Translations under genes and position numbers: made by a program
The notes under the pieces: generated by a model
Told to the model about the DNA's origin: nothing
The model's database searches: none
Seen by the model: the letters and a program-made list of their open reading frames with translations, nothing else
Shown here: one piece after another, positions 651 through 7,361 of the stretch
Numbering within the stretch: position 1 is the stretch's first letter
Layout of the letters: each line of letters opens with the position of its first letter
IMG/VR virus record: IMGVR_UViG_2778261276_000006
DNA: 7,626 bases
Source: a virus
Lineage: Duplodnaviria; Heunggongvirae; Uroviricota; Caudoviricetes
Direction: 5' to 3' (one strand)

Positions 651-1748
651 ATGAAAAAATTAACAGTGGCAATTTCTGCTGTAGCTGCATCAGTACTGAT
701 GGCGATGTCTGCTCAGGCAGCTGAAATTTATAATAAAGACAGTAACAAGCTGGATCTGTACGGGAAAGTTAATGCCAAGCACTACTTCTCCTCTAATGAT
801 GCAGATGATGGTGATACTACTTATGCCCGTCTTGGCTTCAAAGGTGAAACCCAAATCAACGATCAACTGACTGGTTTCGGTCAGTGGGAATATGAATTCA
901 AAGGCAACCGCGCTGAATCTCAAGGTTCCTCCAAAGACAAAACCCGTCTTGCATTTGCAGGCCTGAAATTCGGTGACTACGGCTCAATCGATTACGGCCG
1001 TAACTACGGTGTAGCATACGACATCGGTGCGTGGACTGACGTTCTGCCAGAATTCGGTGGCGATACCTGGACCCAAACAGATGTGTTCATGACTGGTCGC
1101 ACCACTGGTGTTGCAACCTATCGTAACAACGACTTCTTTGGTCTGGTTGATGGTCTGAACTTTGCTGCTCAGTACCAAGGCAAAAACGATCGTAGCGATT
1201 TCGATAACTACACTGAAGGTAACGGTGATGGCTTCGGTTTCTCTGCTACCTATGAATACGAAGGATTCGGTATCGGTGCAACTTATGCGAAATCTGATCG
1301 TACCGACACTCAAGTTAATGCAGGGAAAGTTCTTCCTGAAGTATTTGCTTCCGGTAAAAATGCAGAAGTTTGGGCCGCAGGTCTGAAATATGACGCTAAC
1401 AACATTTACCTGGCCACTACCTATTCTGAAACCCAGAATATGACTGTATTTGCTGATCACTTCGTTGCTAATAAAGCCCAAAACTTCGAAGCTGTTGCAC
1501 AATATCAGTTCGATTTCGGTCTGCGTCCGTCCGTTGCTTACCTGCAATCTAAAGGTAAAGATCTTGGAGTATGGGGCGATCAGGACTTAGTCAAATATGT
1601 TGATGTAGGTGCAACCTATTACTTCAACAAAAATATGTCTACTTTCGTTGATTACAAAATCAACCTGCTTGACAAAAATGACTTCACTAAAGCACTCGGT
1701 GTAAGCACTGATGACATCGTTGCTGTAGGTCTGGTTTACCAGTTCTAA
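651..1748 (+). CDS. nmpC: Outer-membrane general porin, prophage-encoded NmpC/Lc/OmpD family (365 aa, apparently intact)
   Basis: ATG start; signal peptide [23 protein letters not shown] with AQA-AE cleavage site; glycine/aromatic-rich beta-barrel composition; C-terminal ...VGLVYQF with terminal Phe typical of porins. Sequence recognised as NmpC/Lc-like. No IS interruption. Confidence 0.93.
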
Positions 1749-1937: not shown

Positions 1938-2321
1938 TTAATTAGAGTTATTAACAACGATATCCATCTCTAACCGGATATCTAATGCCATTAACATCCC
2001 TTCAATTATGCCCTCAGCCTTCTGTAACCTTTTCCCGATATAACCATCAGAGCAGCAATGCTTACCTGCCAGTGACATGAATGTCATACCGACTACATAA
2101 TAATCTACTAATAAATCGTGCAAATCGCTGTTGTTCTTTTTCAGACGGGCCATGCACCCGCAAATGATCATCGCGTCATCGTCACAACATTGCGGGCGAG
2201 ATTTTACTTTTGAAGGAATTAATCCCTTAAAACCGGCGGCAATGGACGACCAGGTCACATCTTCATGATTATTAGCCGCCCACGCTCCCCAACGCTCAAG
2301 AACCATCTGAATATCACGCAT
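1938..2321 (-). CDS. quuD: Late-gene antiterminator Q (QuuD-like, 127 aa)
   Basis: ORF track protein from [11 protein letters not shown]... to ...VVNNSN recognised as DLP12 QuuD. I place the start at ATG 2321-2319, preceded by GGAG 7 nt upstream, rather than the TTG at 2336 used by the track. Confidence 0.9.
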
Positions 2322-2406
2322 CAACTTACTCCACAAAAATCAGACCAGAACGCCAATCACAAGCAAAAATCAACAAAACAGTATTAGTTGATTGTTATCT
2401 CTGACT

Positions 2407-2547
2407 TCATACTCCTGCTCCTGTCAGGGTTTTGGCGTAATTCTTCAGTATTCGGTAATCGGTCAAAACAGAACCGGGGAAACGATATAAGCGCAGATGC
2501 CCCCAGCGGTGGCGAAGAAGTTCTGCCATATAAAACTCAAACATCAT
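2407..2547 (-). CDS. ylcG: Small protein YlcG-like (46 aa)
   Basis: Hand translation of the minus strand: [46 protein letters not shown], then TGA. Its ATG (2547-2545) overlaps the rusA TGA stop (2546-2544) as ATGA. Same position as ylcG between rusA and quuD in DLP12. Below the ORF-track length cutoff. Confidence 0.5.
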
Positions 2548-2906
2548 TCATTCCCCATTTCGGTGATGGTCAGTTCCAGCCTCCCACCTTTGGTAACAGG
2601 CATCTTCACAACGCGGTAATCAACGACCTGAGCATCATCCAGCCAGAAACCTGCTTTAGTGAGTGCGTCAAAAGCGGCTTTTTGCAGATTATCCAGGTCA
2701 CGGCGACGGCGATCCGGCATGTGGCACTCAATGCGGATTTTCACAGGCATAGCCAGGCCGATATCCAGCATTGCGTTTTTAATGATTCGGGCGACGTTAT
2801 CGCGGTATGCCTGCCCCTCTGCGCTGATGTGCGTGCGCCCGCGATTATGGCGGTAATAGCGATTATTGCTCGGAGGCCAGGGTAATGTGATGCTGTAGGT
2901 ATTCAC
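2544..2906 (-). CDS. rusA: Holliday-junction resolvase RusA (120 aa)
   Basis: Protein [24 protein letters not shown]... recognised as RusA. GTG start at 2906-2904 overlaps the ybcO stop (GTGA). Confidence 0.93.
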
Positions 2907-3193
2907 GCCTTAATAACCCCCTCTTTCAGCCAGATAACCTGTGTTCTCGCCATACCTTCCAGCGCGCATTCTTTTGCATACTCAGCATCGACAAAATGCG
3001 TGCGACGGTCGATCTCATCGTGACAGGCAGAACATGCAATGGTGGCAATCAGGTCTGGCGGTTTGGTACCGGTGCCACACAATTCAGCCAGCCGGATATG
3101 TGCCAGTACAGACGTTTCAGGGTTGCCATTACATACGCCAGGGATTCTTACCTGGCATTCCCGACCACGCGCTGCTTTTCTCAAATCAGCCAT
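2903..3193 (-). CDS. ybcO: YbcO-like Cys-rich putative nuclease (DUF1364), 96 aa
   Basis: [33 protein letters not shown]...CSACHDEID... Start placed at ATG 3193-3191 behind a strong AAGGAGG SD; the track's TTG at 3232 is a spurious N-terminal extension. Confidence 0.85.
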
Positions 3194-3356
3194 GATTCCT
3201 CCTTGCTGCCAGTCGCAACCATTTTTTATCAACCAGGCTGGCGGTATACCCTAGCAGTGTTGGTATTTCGGATGGCTTCAGCTCAGGCTTACGCTTACGA
3301 CGATTTGGTACTCTGTAGATGTGTCCGTTCATGACCCGAATAAGCGGTGTAGTCAT
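3186..3356 (-). CDS. ninE: NinE (56 aa)
   Basis: [59 protein letters not shown] 3356-3354 with AGGAGG 4 nt upstream; overlaps the ybcN stop by 1 nt (TAATG). The 3' end overlaps the ybcO start by 8 nt. Confidence 0.85.
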   Translation of the reverse strand: MTTPLIRVMNGHIYRVPNRRKRKPELKPSEIPTLLGYTASLVDKKWLRLAARRNHG

Positions 3357-3811
3357 TACGCCTCCTGCTTGTCGCGCAGCAGCTGGAACTCGCAGCTCTG
3401 TGGAATAGTCAGGTGGCAACCAATATTCATCGCCCAGGCTTCAACCTTACACAGGAAGACATACATCTCTCCGGTATCAAGATCGGAGGTATGGCGTAAC
3501 GACTGGATAGTGGTGATATCACCGGTTACGACATCAACCAGGTCTTTGGTTTCATAACCGAGATATGTGTGTTTGAGAGCATCTTTTACCCAAGCTGGAG
3601 TGGCGAACGTTTTACCCCTGCTGATGAGGTATTCACTGATTTCGCTGTACCACATGTGGCTGAGTGCATTCTGGGAAAGACTGCGTCTCTCGCGCCACGG
3701 TTTAAGCACCATGCGAAAGCATTTGCCGTCCTCCAGATAAGGCTGGATCTGCCGACCGATAGCGGTGAAGTTACCGCGATGCAATTTGATACCATCTTGT
3801 GGGAGGTTCAC
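3356..3811 (-). CDS. ybcN: YbcN (151 aa), DLP12 nin-region protein reported as DNA base-flipping protein
   Basis: ORF track protein [30 protein letters not shown]... recognised as YbcN. GTG start 3811-3809 with GGAGGTG SD 4 nt upstream. Confidence 0.9.
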
Positions 3812-3909
3812 GCTTCACCTCCGCAGAGATCAAACGTTGGATGCAAGATATCGCAGGTGCATTTCTGCATCTGTGACTGGTTGAAAGGTGTTCTGATTGT
3901 CGTTTGCAC
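3808..3909 (-). CDS. ylcH: Small ORF, YlcH-like (33 aa), translationally coupled to ybcN
   Basis: Hand translation: (GTG)[33 protein letters not shown], then TGA overlapping the ybcN GTG (GTGA). GAGGGGA SD 6 nt upstream of the GTG at 3909-3907. Position matches ylcH upstream of ybcN in DLP12. Identity by position and length only. Confidence 0.4.
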
Positions 3910-4051
3910 TTTGAGTCCCCTCAAAGCGCAGAAGTCACCGGAGTTGTTCAGGCTCCGATGACATGATTATGGCGAGTTGATTATGATGAATCAATAGGTT
4001 CTTATGTCAAATGAACACTAGATTCAAAGGAGGGTAACAATTATCATAGCC

Positions 4052-4069
4052 AATGAGATTAATCTCATT
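4052..4069. promoter_or_regulatory. 18-bp perfect palindrome AATGAGATTAATCTCATT, candidate operator upstream of the 472-aa gene
   Basis: Read directly; centred about 27 nt upstream of the ATG at 4087, just 5' of the AAGGA SD (4076-4080). Confidence 0.3.
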
Positions 4070-4086
4070 TTTAATAAGGAAATTTC

Positions 4087-5505
4087 ATGAAATATTTCTC
4101 AACTGGTTTTTATGTTTCAAACTCCACATCTCTAGCTGAGATCTTTAATGAATGTTTTTCTTGGGTAAACGACTCACCACATACAACTTTTATTCCAGCA
4201 CAATTAGTATGTGATTATAAAAGCGAGGAGTACTTCATAGAGTCTAAAAATGAAAGAATTGATATAATAAATTATAAAAACAAAGATACTAGTTTAGGCT
4301 GTTTTAGGTATTCGAAAATATCTGAGCCACACAAATGGGTAACAGATATTTCAATTAATAAAAATCTCAAAACTGATACCATGTGGATTCAGGTGGAATC
4401 TAGCGTTGTAAGCCAAGATGCAGCTTATCTAGCCCCGCAACCTAAGAAACCATTAGTTGTTATGAGATTGATTGATAAATTTCCTGGTGGTCTTGATGAT
4501 ATTTTCAAGGTGTCAGTCGAACCTCATTCCTTAGATGATACTGATGAACATTTAAATATAGCAGCTAAAGTTATAAATGGTGAAACTGACAACAGACTAC
4601 CAATAATATACGTTAGCTCCAAGTATTTTTTTAATGAACATGCTCACAATATCATCCCAGAACGCCTTGCAAGAAAGGTATGCGGATTAGCACATGTATT
4701 AATTGAGCCTAGCAATAGACTATTTTCTACTAAGCTAAAAAATGAGACAAATGCTAAAAATGCCTATGCTGGTGCTGTTGGTATCTATTGGCCACGGGGT
4801 CAAAATATCAGTTTTTATCGCCGTGGTGAGAAAACCGCAAAAGAATTTGAAGATGAGTTATTTGATGATGTTGTAAGAGCTACGACTACAATGGCTCCTG
4901 TCTCAGATAGTGGATGGAGTGAGATACAAACCAGAAAAACGAAAGACTCTATTAACTCACTCAAAGAAAGAGGAGAATACACACGCGAACTGATGGCGCT
5001 TTACGAAGCCGATAATGTTGCGAAAGATGACCAAATAGAAGATCTTAAGCATAAGATCTCCTCTTTAGAGCACAGAGTACGCACTCTTCAATCACAAGCT
5101 TCAGCCCAAGGAAGCATTGTGCTTAATGCTGGTGAAGAGACTGACTTTTTTGATGGAGAAATCAAAAATATAATTATTGACGCACTAAAAACTGCCATAA
5201 AAAATAAAAATGAATTTGGTAGAAGCTACCATAGCTTATCATCCCTAATTGCCAATAATGAATACAATAAAGAAACCGAGAGTCGCCGCCAATTACTTAA
5301 AAGGACTTTAACAGGTTACAGAAGCATGGATAGCGCAACACAAAGAAATTTAAAGGACTTAGGTTTCAGTGCGTCAAGCGATGGAAAACACTGGAAGTTA
5401 ACATATAATGAAGACCCTCGATATTCCTATATTTTACCTAAAACAGGAAGTGACCACAGAGGTTCTTTAAATGCTATCTCGGATATAGCAAACATTATTT
5501 TCTAA
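4087..5505 (+). CDS. Hypothetical protein, 472 aa, unassigned family; candidate prophage accessory / anti-phage defence gene
   Basis: Long uninterrupted ORF in AT-rich DNA, where stop codons are frequent. ATG with AAGGA SD 6 nt upstream. No signal peptide or obvious transmembrane segment, no Walker A motif. Central region predicted helical/coiled-coil (…EDLKHKISSLEHRVRTLQSQASAQ…). Followed by a hairpin terminator. Confidence 0.85.
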   Translation: MKYFSTGFYVSNSTSLAEIFNECFSWVNDSPHTTFIPAQLVCDYKSEEYFIESKNERIDIINYKNKDTSLGCFRYSKISEPHKWVTDISINKNLKTDTMWIQVESSVVSQDAAYLAPQPKKPLVVMRLIDKFPGGLDDIFKVSVEPHSLDDTDEHLNIAAKVINGETDNRLPIIYVSSKYFFNEHAHNIIPERLARKVCGLAHVLIEPSNRLFSTKLKNETNAKNAYAGAVGIYWPRGQNISFYRRGEKTAKEFEDELFDDVVRATTTMAPVSDSGWSEIQTRKTKDSINSLKERGEYTRELMALYEADNVAKDDQIEDLKHKISSLEHRVRTLQSQASAQGSIVLNAGEETDFFDGEIKNIIIDALKTAIKNKNEFGRSYHSLSSLIANNEYNKETESRRQLLKRTLTGYRSMDSATQRNLKDLGFSASSDGKHWKLTYNEDPRYSYILPKTGSDHRGSLNAISDIANIIF

Positions 5506-5512
5506 TAAATTT

Positions 5513-5548
5513 CAATAGCACTCACAAATGAGTGCTATTGTTGCCACT
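5513..5548 (+). terminator. Hairpin terminator between convergent cargo ORFs
   Basis: Perfect 12-bp stem caatagcactca (5513-5524) / tgagtgctattg (5529-5540) with 4-nt loop caaa, 8 nt after the TAA of the 472-aa gene. The 3' flank TTGCC is only weakly U-rich. Confidence 0.5.
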
Positions 5549-5556
5549 GAATTACT

Positions 5557-5811
5557 CTATTTAAATTCAACTTTTATCCCTTTGTTTAGCAGGGCATCAG
5601 AAACTGCCTTTTTTGTAACATTTATCCCTGCAAGCAATGCTTTATGCATTGGTCCCTTAAAAATCTCTACTTCTTCTTCAGTGAGTTTAGGCAATGTAAT
5701 ATAAATAACATCTTTCATCTGCTTGTTTTTATAGCATGAGCTTCTTGTGTGCTTACAATCGATATTTTCTTTATTTCCCAAAACATCATCCCCTTTATAA
5801 TTCAGTTCCAC
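5557..5811 (-). CDS. Questionable small ORF (84 aa from a GTG; shorter from internal ATGs), hypothetical
   Basis: Open frame in AT-rich DNA, convergent with the 472-aa gene. No convincing SD before the GTG at 5811 or the first internal ATG. C-terminal part (…MHKALLAGINVTKKAVSDALLNKGIKVEFK) is faintly reminiscent of a small DNA-binding fold. May be non-coding. Confidence 0.3.
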   Translation of the reverse strand: MELNYKGDDVLGNKENIDCKHTRSSCYKNKQMKDVIYITLPKLTEEEVEIFKGPMHKALLAGINVTKKAVSDALLNKGIKVEFK

Positions 5812-5869
5812 ACATCAATTATTTAGTTATCACGAATGTCGTAAAACTAAAATTAGTAACAATAATTGC

Positions 5870-6163
5870 TCATACCCACTCTCTTCCATATAAAGCCAAC
5901 ACCCGCTTCATCGCGGCACTTTGACGACACTCCTTAAAAATCAGATTCGTGCTCACCTTTCCTTCCCGTTCTTCTCTGGTAGCGAACCGGTAATACACCG
6001 TTCGCCAGACCTTACCATCAACGACCAGGATTCCTGCCCGCGCCATTTTAGCCGCAGCCTGATTTATGCTGGTTACGGTTGCGCCTGTTACCGCGGCAAC
6101 GTCCTGCGCACAGAAGTTCTTATGAGTCCCCAGGTAATGAATAATTGCCTCTTTGCCCGTCAT
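5870..6163 (-). CDS. ren: Ren (97 aa)
   Basis: MTGKEAIIHYLGTH...AAKMARAG...RFATREEREGK... recognised as lambda Ren. ATG overlaps the P stop (ATGA). Confidence 0.88.
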   Translation of the reverse strand: MTGKEAIIHYLGTHKNFCAQDVAAVTGATVTSINQAAAKMARAGILVVDGKVWRTVYYRFATREEREGKVSTNLIFKECRQSAAMKRVLALYGREWV

Positions 6164-6861
6164 ACACTTGCTCCTTTCAGCCCAAACTTCGCTTTGATTT
6201 CTGCGATCTTCGCCAGAGACTGAACACGATTAAGCGGTCTCCCGCCCATAACAGGAAGTTGTTTTACTGGTTCAGGTATCGCCTCACCACGGTTAATTCG
6301 CGCTGTCATACAGGCCAGTTCATCGGCAGCCTTGCGCCGTAATTCCGCATCAGTCAGCGCATTGGCCCGCATGTTCTGATACAGGTTGGTAACCAGCCAG
6401 TAGTGCGCGTTTGATTTCCACGGATAAGACTCTGCATCCGGATACAGGCCACGTTTCCGGCAATACTCGTAAACCATATCAACCAGCTCGCTGGCGTTTG
6501 GCAGCCCGGCGGTAACGGATGCTTCTTCCCGGCACCAGGCAACAAACTGCCCGGGTGATGGCAGGAATGGTCGATTCTGCCGACGGGCTACGCGCATTCC
6601 TGCATTAACCTGTTCCATCGTGGTGATCCCGTTTTCCCGGAAAGCCAGAACCCACTGGCGGCGGATTTCGTTCAGTTCGTTCTGGTCCCGGTTAGCCAGG
6701 CTCGCCGGGAAAGTTGCCAGTAACTGGCTGAACACACCATTGATGATCTGCGCTACCTGTTGTACCTGCGGCTTTTCTTCGTACTGTTCCGGCATGTTGT
6801 TGGCGATCCGGCGCATCTGCTCACGGTCAAAGTTAACCATCTGTGCGGCGATGTTTTTCAT
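6160..6861 (-). CDS. P: Replication protein P (DnaB-loading), 233 aa
   Basis: Near-identical to lambda P as recalled (MKNIAAQMVNFDREQMRRIANNMPEQY...KAKFGLKGASV). GGTGGAG SD; ATG overlaps the O stop (ATGA). Confidence 0.95.
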   Translation of the reverse strand: MKNIAAQMVNFDREQMRRIANNMPEQYEEKPQVQQVAQIINGVFSQLLATFPASLANRDQNELNEIRRQWVLAFRENGITTMEQVNAGMRVARRQNRPFLPSPGQFVAWCREEASVTAGLPNASELVDMVYEYCRKRGLYPDAESYPWKSNAHYWLVTNLYQNMRANALTDAELRRKAADELACMTARINRGEAIPEPVKQLPVMGGRPLNRVQSLAKIAEIKAKFGLKGASV

Positions 6862-7361
6862 AGCTCCACCCCGTAAATCCAGTCAGTGTTCGTCAGGTCG
6901 AGTTTTGGTGTGCCGGCTGTCACGCCAGCCTGTTGCTTGTTTCGGTTGATTTCGAGCTGGGTCCACTTGTCGCGGAGTTTGGCTGGACTCAGCACGTTAC
7001 CGGACCAGAAGTTGTCCTGGCATGCCCAGCGGAACAGCACGCACATGTCGCGGTGGTTACGTCCGTCACGTTCACGCATCAGGCGGATATCGTTAGCCCA
7101 CCTTGCAAAATTCGGTTTTCTGGCTGATGGCGCGATGGTCTTCACCATGTCAAACATCCACTCTGCGGCGGTCAGGTCTTCTGCTGTCCCCCACTTGCTG
7201 CCACTCTGAATTGCAGCATCCGGTTTCACCACAGGAAGGTCGTTTTCTGGCTGGTCAGAGGATTCGCCAGAATTCTCGGACGAAAAAGGTTTTATATTGT
7301 CTTTTGTTAGTTTGTCTTTTGTGTTTACCTGATTCGGGTAAGCGCCTTTAGGCGCGATCAC
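6858..7361 (-). pseudogene. O: Replication initiator O, C-terminal fragment only (N-terminal iteron-binding domain missing)
   Basis: Track protein matches the lambda O C-terminal half from about the last iteron onward (...YPNQ..SSENSGESSDQPENDL.VVKPDAAIQSGSKWGTAEDLTAAEWMFDMVKT...WIYGVEL). The frame opens at a GTG (7361-7359) three codons after an in-frame TAG (7370-7368). Upstream minus-strand DNA does not encode an O N-terminus in any frame. Confidence 0.65.

Follow-up and report, generated by a model that had tools for sequence, protein, structure and literature searches.

An AT-rich island in a lambda-type prophage carries a candidate single-gene defence protein, a distant relative of HEC-07 with a HicA-like C-terminal module

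The stretch of viral DNA analysed here (IMG/VR record IMGVR_UViG_2778261276_000006; 7,626 nucleotides, hereafter the window) is part of an Escherichia coli prophage of the DLP12/lambda type. Between the phage genes ren and ybcN it contains an AT-rich island whose main gene encodes a 472-residue protein, and the analysis concerns this island, its gene and the family to which the encoded protein belongs. The island and its flanks comprise the following features.

3356-3811, minus strand: ybcN, the gene in the NinB position, phage backbone of the left flank (RefSeq annotation; weak Pfam NinB match).
About 3808-3909: ylcH-like remnant after ybcN.
3958-3987, plus strand: best sigma-70-like promoter candidate (ATGACA, 18-nt spacer, TATGAT; 10 of 12 matches), from a consensus scan only, straddling the left junction.
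3985-5884: AT-rich cargo island of about 1.9 kb and about 35% GC between ren and ylcH-like/ybcN, delimited by GC profile and breakpoints.
4052-4069: perfect 18-bp palindrome, AATGAGATTAATCTCATT, located downstream of the promoter candidate and ahead of the ribosome-binding site.
4076-4081, plus strand: Shine-Dalgarno sequence AAGGAA, 5 nt before the ATG, read from the sequence.
4087-5505, plus strand: gene of the 472-residue protein (RefSeq WP_077861925.1, 'hypothetical protein'), antisense to the O-P-ren-nin-Q operon.
5513-5540: perfect hairpin with a 12-bp stem and a 4-nt loop, between the two convergent genes.
5557-5811, minus strand: small orphan open reading frame (ORF), annotated with 84 amino acids but probably 53 from Met32 (5557-5718), convergent with the 472-residue gene.
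5870-6163, minus strand: ren, phage backbone of the right flank (RefSeq 'protein ren'; homologous across 2,545 genomes).

The GC content in 300-nt windows is 0.29-0.40 across positions ~3900-5850 and 0.49-0.57 on both sides; by segment, it is 35.1% for 3926-5869 versus 51.5% for 2544-3811 and 53.4% for 5870-7361. This break agrees with an earlier note, made from the letters alone, which had described an AT-rich island between phage-type flanks, and the flanks are equally as described, P, RusA, YbcO and Q passing Pfam and ren and ybcN being annotated by RefSeq. Comparison by blastn with prophages that carry other cargo places the left breakpoint at ~3984 and the right one at ~5885-5904, just inside the 3' end of ren, within ~60 nt of the edges that the earlier note had given (3926-5869). 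On the ybcN side, the flank is 95% identical to one such prophage (L017) up to 3984. Since homology to other ren genes starts only at 5885-5904, the right recombination junction lies inside the ren coding sequence; the last 5-11 ren codons vary among prophages, and annotated ren lengths range from 288 to 303 nt.

Among 5,426 complete E. coli genomes, ren-P DNA (at least 80% query coverage) is found in 2,545, but the island in only 24. In five other prophages the slot after ren is empty up to NinB (L018, L019) or holds emrE-ylcJ-ybcK (L020), decayed emrE/ybcK remnants (L017) or Lar and DUF7301 genes (L016). The site is therefore a swappable cargo slot, as the earlier note had proposed on the strength of the emrE-ybcK cargo of K-12, a type of cargo seen here in L020. 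Being a discrete insert of foreign composition between backbone genes, and missing from related prophages, the island resembles a moron in these respects. In strain G4/9 (NZ_CP060073.1 3604393-3607825), an insertion of an IS3-family transposase splits it in two, so that it can be inactivated in nature. A related DNA block occurs in an Edwardsiella prophage (window 3761-5713 versus L021 4680-6623, 77.8% identity). This block extends leftward past the ~3984 breakpoint into the ylcH-like region and the start of ybcN, and its right end is the start of the small ORF. Because its ends differ from the island edges, the unit of phage-to-phage exchange is not the same as the compositional island.

The antisense position of the 472-residue ORF with its own Shine-Dalgarno sequence is as the earlier note had read it, and AAGGAG/AAGGAA is retained in Edwardsiella. 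The block around the promoter candidate, TTGATTATGATGAATCAA, is partly conserved in the Edwardsiella locus. The perfect 18-bp palindrome exists, but it is not conserved upstream of the gene in Edwardsiella (81%-identical locus), in the integrase-linked island or in Dickeya; the operator label that the earlier note had attached to it is thus unsupported and was dropped. The hairpin stem, in contrast, is kept in Edwardsiella through compensatory substitutions (CAATAGCACTCA/TGAGTGCTATTG versus CAACAGCATTC/GAATGCTGTTG). Such maintenance supports a real terminator, probably bidirectional, in line with the earlier description.

The AlphaFold2 model of the 472-residue protein has a pLDDT (predicted local distance difference test) of 83.9 and displays five structural units, all encoded on the plus strand.

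4087-4422, residues 1-112: domain 1, alpha+beta with an antiparallel sheet, Bet v 1/START (SRPBCC)-like, with conserved W26, S30, W84 and T86; a putative sensor or ligand-binding module.
4441-4902, residues 119-272: domain 2, a thioredoxin fold without CxxC.
4915-5097, residues 277-337: coiled coil (model helices 277-295 and 300-337; coiled-coil noise matches in Pfam and PDB), a probable dimerisation element.
5158-5331, residues 358-415: helical domain (helices 358-371, 379-389 and 396-408) with conserved E358, R379 and N391, which may act as in-cis inhibitor or adaptor of the RNase module.
5332-5502, residues 416-472: C-terminal HicA-like module, alpha-beta-beta-beta-alpha, with G433-x-H435 and D443, R445, D456, R458 and N462; predicted to be the RNase effector.

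A short, poorly predicted linker connects the coiled coil to the helical domain. The protein contains no hydrophobic or membrane segment and is taken to be soluble and cytoplasmic. Conservation was assessed on an alignment of 210 sequences with a median identity of 30% to the window protein, in which 23 positions are at least 95% conserved. Eleven of these fall in the thioredoxin-like domain, which holds many family-invariant residues (P122, D137, P172, Y175, S177, G200, A202, H203, E207, F213, G229 and the GIYWP motif). The C-terminal unit accounts for another eight (G426, F427, H435, D443, R445, D456, R458 and N462) and is the most conserved region overall. Compared with the Edwardsiella copy, the gene differs at 63, 40 and 162 first, second and third codon positions, respectively, which indicates purifying selection.

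Scans of Pfam, NCBIfam and PHROG with the whole protein and four fragments gave only coiled-coil noise and one unnamed C-terminal PHROG, and sequence-profile searches of the PDB from the full-length alignment and from the C-terminal one yielded coiled-coil noise but no useful match. Relatives are nevertheless numerous. A word-indexed search returned 74 clusters, nearly all of ~470 residues, all unnamed and almost all without a Pfam domain, and an exhaustive profile search returned 3,480 representatives at 50% identity with E <= 0.001, 1,040 of them with E <= 1e-30. Nearly all of the top 150 profile matches have the same full-length architecture, with a family length of ~465 residues, and the family includes Firmicutes. 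A housekeeping, structural or replication protein, which the earlier note had named as the finding that would speak against its proposal, is excluded by the lack of any such match in the searches run and by the patchy, mobile-element-linked distribution.

The sole match in the defence libraries is to the PADLOC model PDLC04161 of HEC-07 (E = 1.2e-09, 35.6 bits), spanning residues 82-337 of the protein and positions 103-369 of the 553 in the hidden Markov model (48% of its length). The same model matches all 41 family members tested (best 5.6e-15), and PDLC04159 matches 15 of the 41. HEC-07 stands for Hma-embedded candidate 07, a single-gene candidate defence family represented by the PADLOC models PDLC04158-04161 (Payne et al., bioRxiv 10.1101/2024.01.29.577857). 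Of nine candidates, that study names only HEC-01 and HEC-09 as non-protective, so HEC-07 belongs to the seven that lowered plaquing. The authors describe its architecture as an alpha+beta domain at the N-terminus, a thioredoxin-like domain that lacks CxxC and, at the C-terminus, a RelE/HP0892-like RNase domain with H543.

For direct comparison, we used the first 399 residues of the tested Pseudomonas aeruginosa protein WP_033943166.1 (Payne et al., Table S2). Aligned with it by hhalign, the family profile gave a probability of 95.7% and E = 1e-08 over 228 columns at 18% identity, with residues 82-322 of the window protein on residues 102-352 of HEC-07, an interval that begins late in domain 1 and reaches the first part of the coiled coil; BLASTP gave 25% identity over 151 residues. 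Both proteins keep W-x-T-[DE], G-x-A-H-V and L-Y-E-x-D-N, within the common anchors KWVTDIS/DWITEVG, GLAHV/GVAHV and ELMALYEADN/ELLGLYEQDN, the last of which opens the coiled coil. Judged by these alignments, the scaffold is homologous to HEC-07 but distant, and the window protein is a divergent sister of this described family with a swapped effector domain. The earlier note, which had matched the protein to no named defence family and held it to be its best candidate for an undescribed system, has to be revised on both points. Most likely, this is not a wholly new kind of system but a large unannotated family in which a HEC-07-type scaffold bears a HicA-type instead of a RelE-type effector. 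A profile search with the N-terminal half listed 120 matches, all of ~463-476 residues or fragments of the same architecture, and among these was no protein of HEC-07 length and no other effector fused to the scaffold; with this single architecture, the swap is seen solely by comparison with HEC-07 itself.

The assignment of the effector draws on several comparisons. Aligned by hhalign with E. coli HicA (exact match to PDB 6hpb chain A), the C-terminal module gave E = 5.7e-05 and placed H435 (DGKHWKL) on His23 (GSNHLKL). Activity or toxicity requires His23 in E. coli HicA and Gly22/His24 in Burkholderia pseudomallei HicA, and HicB masks the catalytic histidine in HicAB (PMC11594946). Across the 210 sequences G433 is 85-95% and H435 at least 95% conserved, so that the Gly-x-His motif is present with the spacing of HicA. 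Pfam HicA_toxin (PF07927) gave no match above its gathering threshold to the window protein, whole or as C-terminal fragments; it matches six of 25 relatives weakly (best E = 0.0048), and the PADLOC 'HicA-like' model matches six of 41 family members (best 2.6e-05). The lines of evidence are weak to moderate taken singly, but jointly they make a HicA-type module likely. With scores below the Pfam threshold and no HicB, we do not file it as a canonical HicA toxin. The unnamed C-terminal PHROG, phrog_2053, is a 72-residue phage-protein profile of unknown function that matches residues 411-467 (window 5317-5487) with E = 9e-08, better than the Pfam HicA match. Stand-alone, phage-encoded copies of the module thus exist, and these could be toxins, or decoys or inhibitors of this defence family.

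The HicA fold is an RNA-binding fold of the double-stranded-RNA-binding-domain type, and RNase activity is here a prediction. In another reading, the C-terminus would bind RNA uncut while the SRPBCC-like domain binds a small molecule, in which case the protein would be a non-catalytic regulator or another lysogenic-conversion factor that alters host physiology. SRPBCC/START folds typically bind hydrophobic ligands, and the same prophage has another conversion gene, a porin. Yet in the 210 sequences the G-x-H motif, through its histidine, and another five polar residues reach a conservation of at least 95%, which points to catalysis and not to binding alone; moreover, the N-terminal half is homologous to a protein scored as anti-phage, and the distribution of the family tracks mobile elements and defence clusters, not metabolic operons. 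We regard a purely regulatory role as very unlikely.

The contexts in which the gene occurs span several kinds of mobile element. In Edwardsiella it has the same lambdoid position, after gene P, and in Salmonella and E. coli it is the immediate neighbour of a P4-type integrase, at either of two chromosomal sites. In five such loci (L002-L006), a 76%-identical homologue is located between the integrase and the chromosomal junction, adjoining yjdC/dsbD or a DUF554 gene; the integrases, a second of which flanks the homologue together with a DUF927 primase-like gene, suggest a small satellite-like integrative element. In Pseudomonas the gene is flanked by a HipA-type kinase pair on one side and P2-type tail-fibre genes on the other, and in Dickeya it is antisense cargo of an integrative and conjugative element (ICE), adjoining IS110 and an Mrr-type gene. 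In Klebsiella pneumoniae, a 49%-identical homologue is the main cargo of several near-identical 5.9-kb mobilizable plasmids of the ColE1 type (among them L032, NZ_CP028803.2, 5,897 bp), where it immediately follows a RelE/ParE-TraY toxin-antitoxin pair and is co-oriented with it. One locus has the gene beside a VWA-PP2C-kinase-helicase cluster and another among HSP70, radical-SAM and Schlafen/AlbA_2 genes. In Firmicutes and metagenomes it is appended to clusters encoding giant DUF2357 proteins; a MYG1 exonuclease is sometimes present, and NERD and WYL genes are found close by. There (L026 and L027 1-8401, L028 1-8398, L031 1-8431), the family gene is the last of a co-oriented cluster that encodes an 856-895-residue protein and a 1,239-1,312-residue protein with a DUF2357 (McrC-like) match, and that in L026-L028 also has the MYG1-family exonuclease. 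Recurring in three independent loci, the DUF2357 cluster may itself be an undescribed multi-gene defence system. Across 10 different contexts there is no conserved partner gene.

Carriage by a very small mobilizable plasmid, an ICE, integrase-linked islands and prophages is also what a stabilisation function would show, such functions being common there. The protein would then be a fused toxin-antitoxin module that mainly maintains its prophage, island or plasmid by post-segregational killing or stress-induced growth arrest, with no phage sensing. A HicA-like toxin module is indeed present, and single genes with fused HicA and HicB are known (classes 11-13 of the 14 HicA contexts, fused forms included, of Gerdes, mBio 2024, PMC10865869). 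However, no HicB-type or DNA-binding antitoxin domain was detected in the 472-residue protein, the neighbours differ in every context, and a single stable polypeptide does not have the differential stability of toxin and antitoxin that post-segregational killing needs. The 5.9-kb plasmid, furthermore, already has its separate RelE/ParE pair, and the closest characterised relative was scored as anti-phage. Addiction without phage sensing is therefore an improbable explanation, and the two roles are not mutually exclusive.

The earlier note had recognised the main ORF but missed the second gene of the island, the small ORF. This ORF follows immediately after ren and reads in the direction of the phage early operon, sense to pR transcription. 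Its identity to the Edwardsiella copy is 68% over exactly the last 53 residues; since this conservation starts exactly at Met32, the product probably has 53 amino acids. Gene callers disagree on the length (53, 84 or 88 residues), and RefSeq labels the ORF a 'phospholipase D-like domain-containing protein' in MB20 (L015 2501-2755) and 'hypothetical' in other genomes; the former label is reproduced by no library and was discarded as an annotation artefact. The ORF has no match in Pfam, PHROG or PADLOC.

A two-gene system, in which the 53-residue peptide serves as antitoxin, or as an off-switch from the early operon at induction, and neither gene functions properly alone in the lambdoid context, would account for several of these properties. 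The peptide gene occurs in 24 complete E. coli genomes, the same number as the island, and again in Edwardsiella, where codon-position differences of 13/5/18 are coding-like. The Edwardsiella-shared DNA, whose homology ends at 5713, stops at the peptide start codon, and the peptide gene is sense to pR transcription. This co-occurrence may, however, reflect one shared 1.9-kb DNA block. The peptide is missing beside the 76%-identical homologue of the integrase-linked islands and from the plasmid, ICE, Pseudomonas, Caulobacter and Firmicutes loci, so that among the family loci it is confined to the lambdoid block of E. coli and Edwardsiella; it was not found in sequenced phages, and no more than four protein clusters of it exist worldwide, each from E. 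coli, with no family or structural assignment. A family-wide partner or antitoxin is rejected on these grounds. The family as a whole is clearly single-gene, and we consider an obligate pair unlikely; the small ORF may be a passenger, or a local accessory of the lambdoid cassette.

Taken together, HEC-07 homology, a toxin-type RNase module and mobile-element and defence-island contexts across phyla make defence the best-supported function. The earlier note had arrived at defence or superinfection exclusion; the former is supported as the most probable, and exclusion at the membrane is unlikely because the protein has no hydrophobic segment. That the island is a prophage moron with a one-gene anti-phage defence is the reading we favour, by a modest degree of belief, and the best form we can give it is a single-protein, sensor-plus-RNase abortive-infection system. 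In such a system, the SRPBCC-like domain and the redox-dead thioredoxin fold, dimerised via the coiled coil, would form a sensor or scaffold half, joined by the helical adaptor to the HicA-type RNase module. In a lysogen, the gene would be expressed from its own promoter, antisense to the silent early operon, with the RNase held inactive in cis, possibly by the helical domain. A product of an infecting phage would bind or perturb the N-terminal half, and the HicA-like module would be released to cleave RNA via its G433-x-H435 site; translation would stop and the infection abort. RNase activity, autoinhibition, trigger-dependent release and abortive outcome are all steps that we infer, by analogy with HEC-07, HicAB and fused toxin-antitoxin defences such as CapRel. 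Lying antisense behind a terminator, the gene is suitably placed for expression in the lysogen, and the same layout would allow silencing by antiterminated pR transcription on induction.

Several points weigh against this defence function. It is a prediction from sequence, and the link to HEC-07 is remote, with 18% identity and partial coverage. HEC-07 is without the family-invariant motifs LPIIYVS, EP and GIYWP, so the N-terminal half may work differently, and the evidence that HEC-07 itself is active is a plaque screen in a preprint that reports no mechanism (bioRxiv 10.1101/2024.01.29.577857). Autoinhibition in cis is assumed by analogy, and the phage product that would act as trigger is hypothetical. 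No homologue of the gene was found in 50,697 sequenced phage genomes. The context sample is anecdotal, ~10 loci and not an enrichment statistic, and part of the 3,480 matches at E <= 0.001 may be coiled-coil noise, while the 1,040 at E <= 1e-30 are safe.

A broader version of the defence reading can be put forward as a speculation. The SRPBCC, dead-thioredoxin and coiled-coil scaffold might be a widespread phage-sensing chassis that bears at least two unrelated mRNA-interferase effectors, RelE-type and HicA-type. The lambdoid island might additionally be a self-regulating cassette in which, at induction, antiterminated pR transcription runs antisense through the defence gene and expresses the 53-residue peptide, which would turn the defence off and spare the prophage its own abortion. 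We would not expect this whole scheme to hold, and offer it with little confidence.

Outside the island, the window carries backbone genes of the early-right operon, including the 3' part of O on the minus strand, and a porin gene.

651-1748, plus strand: intact porin gene of the OmpC/NmpC type, 365 residues (Pfam Porin_1, E = 1e-156).
1938-2336, minus strand: Q (passes Pfam).
2544-2906, minus strand: rusA (RusA passes Pfam).
2903-3232, minus strand: ybcO (passes Pfam).
6160-6861, minus strand: P (passes Pfam).

The porin gene lies just downstream of Q and is preceded by a very AT-rich stretch (~150-650, GC 0.29-0.34). It is a second cargo of the lysogenic-conversion type in the same prophage; the K-12 copy, nmpC, is disrupted by an insertion sequence. 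No Rfam families or tRNAs were found in the window. In strain PEC408, the same prophage (L001) has a DUF7946 gene adjoining the S24 repressor (11775-12638) and a DUF3800 gene between Q and the lysis genes (2897-3700), both of which are candidates for further accessory or defence cargo in other variable slots.

If the defence function is confirmed, it would give a role to a family whose diverged clusters number well above a thousand and range from Enterobacterales and Pseudomonas to Firmicutes, and which is now 'hypothetical' in public databases and without a Pfam or NCBIfam model. It would indicate that the HEC-07 sensor scaffold accepts different effectors, the two families forming a natural pair for the study of N-terminal sensing and in-cis toxin gating, and it would back by experiment a proposal made on bioinformatic grounds, that fused HicA domains serve in phage defence. 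The ren-nin slot of prophages would gain a defined defence cargo, and the convergent peptide with its antisense layout would offer a tractable case for how a prophage avoids triggering its own defence.

The island and its product can be compared with several known systems. Like the emrE/ybcK cargo of DLP12-type prophages, the island occupies the same slot, has a foreign composition and its own terminator, and is found in only some related prophages; it differs in that its defence-type gene runs against the operon, while the genes of the emrE/ybcK cargo point the same way as the operon. With HicA of the type II HicAB systems (PF07927; PDB 6hpb), the C-terminal module has in common the alpha-beta-beta-beta-alpha order, a length of ~55 residues and a G-x-H motif whose histidine falls on the catalytic His23/His24. 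It differs from stand-alone HicA by its fusion to the C-terminus of a 415-residue multidomain part and by a family signature beyond HicA, the conserved D443-x-R445 and D456-x-R458...N462.

Among the fused forms, the nearest by description is Class 14 of Gerdes, 'SMC-HicA' (exemplar WP_223300692.1), which the article presents as an SMC homologue that is largely coiled coil, sometimes with a NERD domain (PMC10865869). By that description, Class 14 is likewise monocistronic, with a C-terminal HicA after coiled-coil and globular parts and a defence role proposed bioinformatically; compared with the class as described there, the window protein has only ~60 coiled-coil residues, lacks an ATPase head and contains the SRPBCC and thioredoxin folds. 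The article makes no mention of a thioredoxin/SRPBCC architecture, and the word 'thioredoxin' does not occur in it.

The proposed mechanism would resemble that of fused toxin-antitoxin defences of the CapRel(SJ46) type, in which a toxin domain is silenced within its own polypeptide; once a phage protein binds the sensor part, translation is shut off and the infection aborts. A comparison of fused HicA proteins with such defences is also made by Gerdes (PMC10865869). The folds and chemistry are unrelated, a RelA/SpoT-like tRNA pyrophosphokinase in CapRel versus a HicA-like RNase here, and the domain order is reversed.

The closest comparison remains HEC-07. The two differ in length, ~549 residues in HEC-07 versus ~465-472 in the family, and above all at the C-terminus, which in HEC-07 is by description RelE/HP0892-like, with H543 ~7 residues from the end. 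In the window protein it is HicA-like, not of the RelE/BECR type, with the histidine 38 residues from the end and an extra helical domain before the module. Both are encoded by one gene and combine an alpha+beta domain, a thioredoxin fold without CxxC, a coiled coil and a small C-terminal toxin domain of the mRNA-interferase type with a conserved histidine. Like HEC-07, the window family also sits in defence-gene neighbourhoods, which resembles the 'embedded in defence systems' signal that lay behind the discovery of HEC-07.

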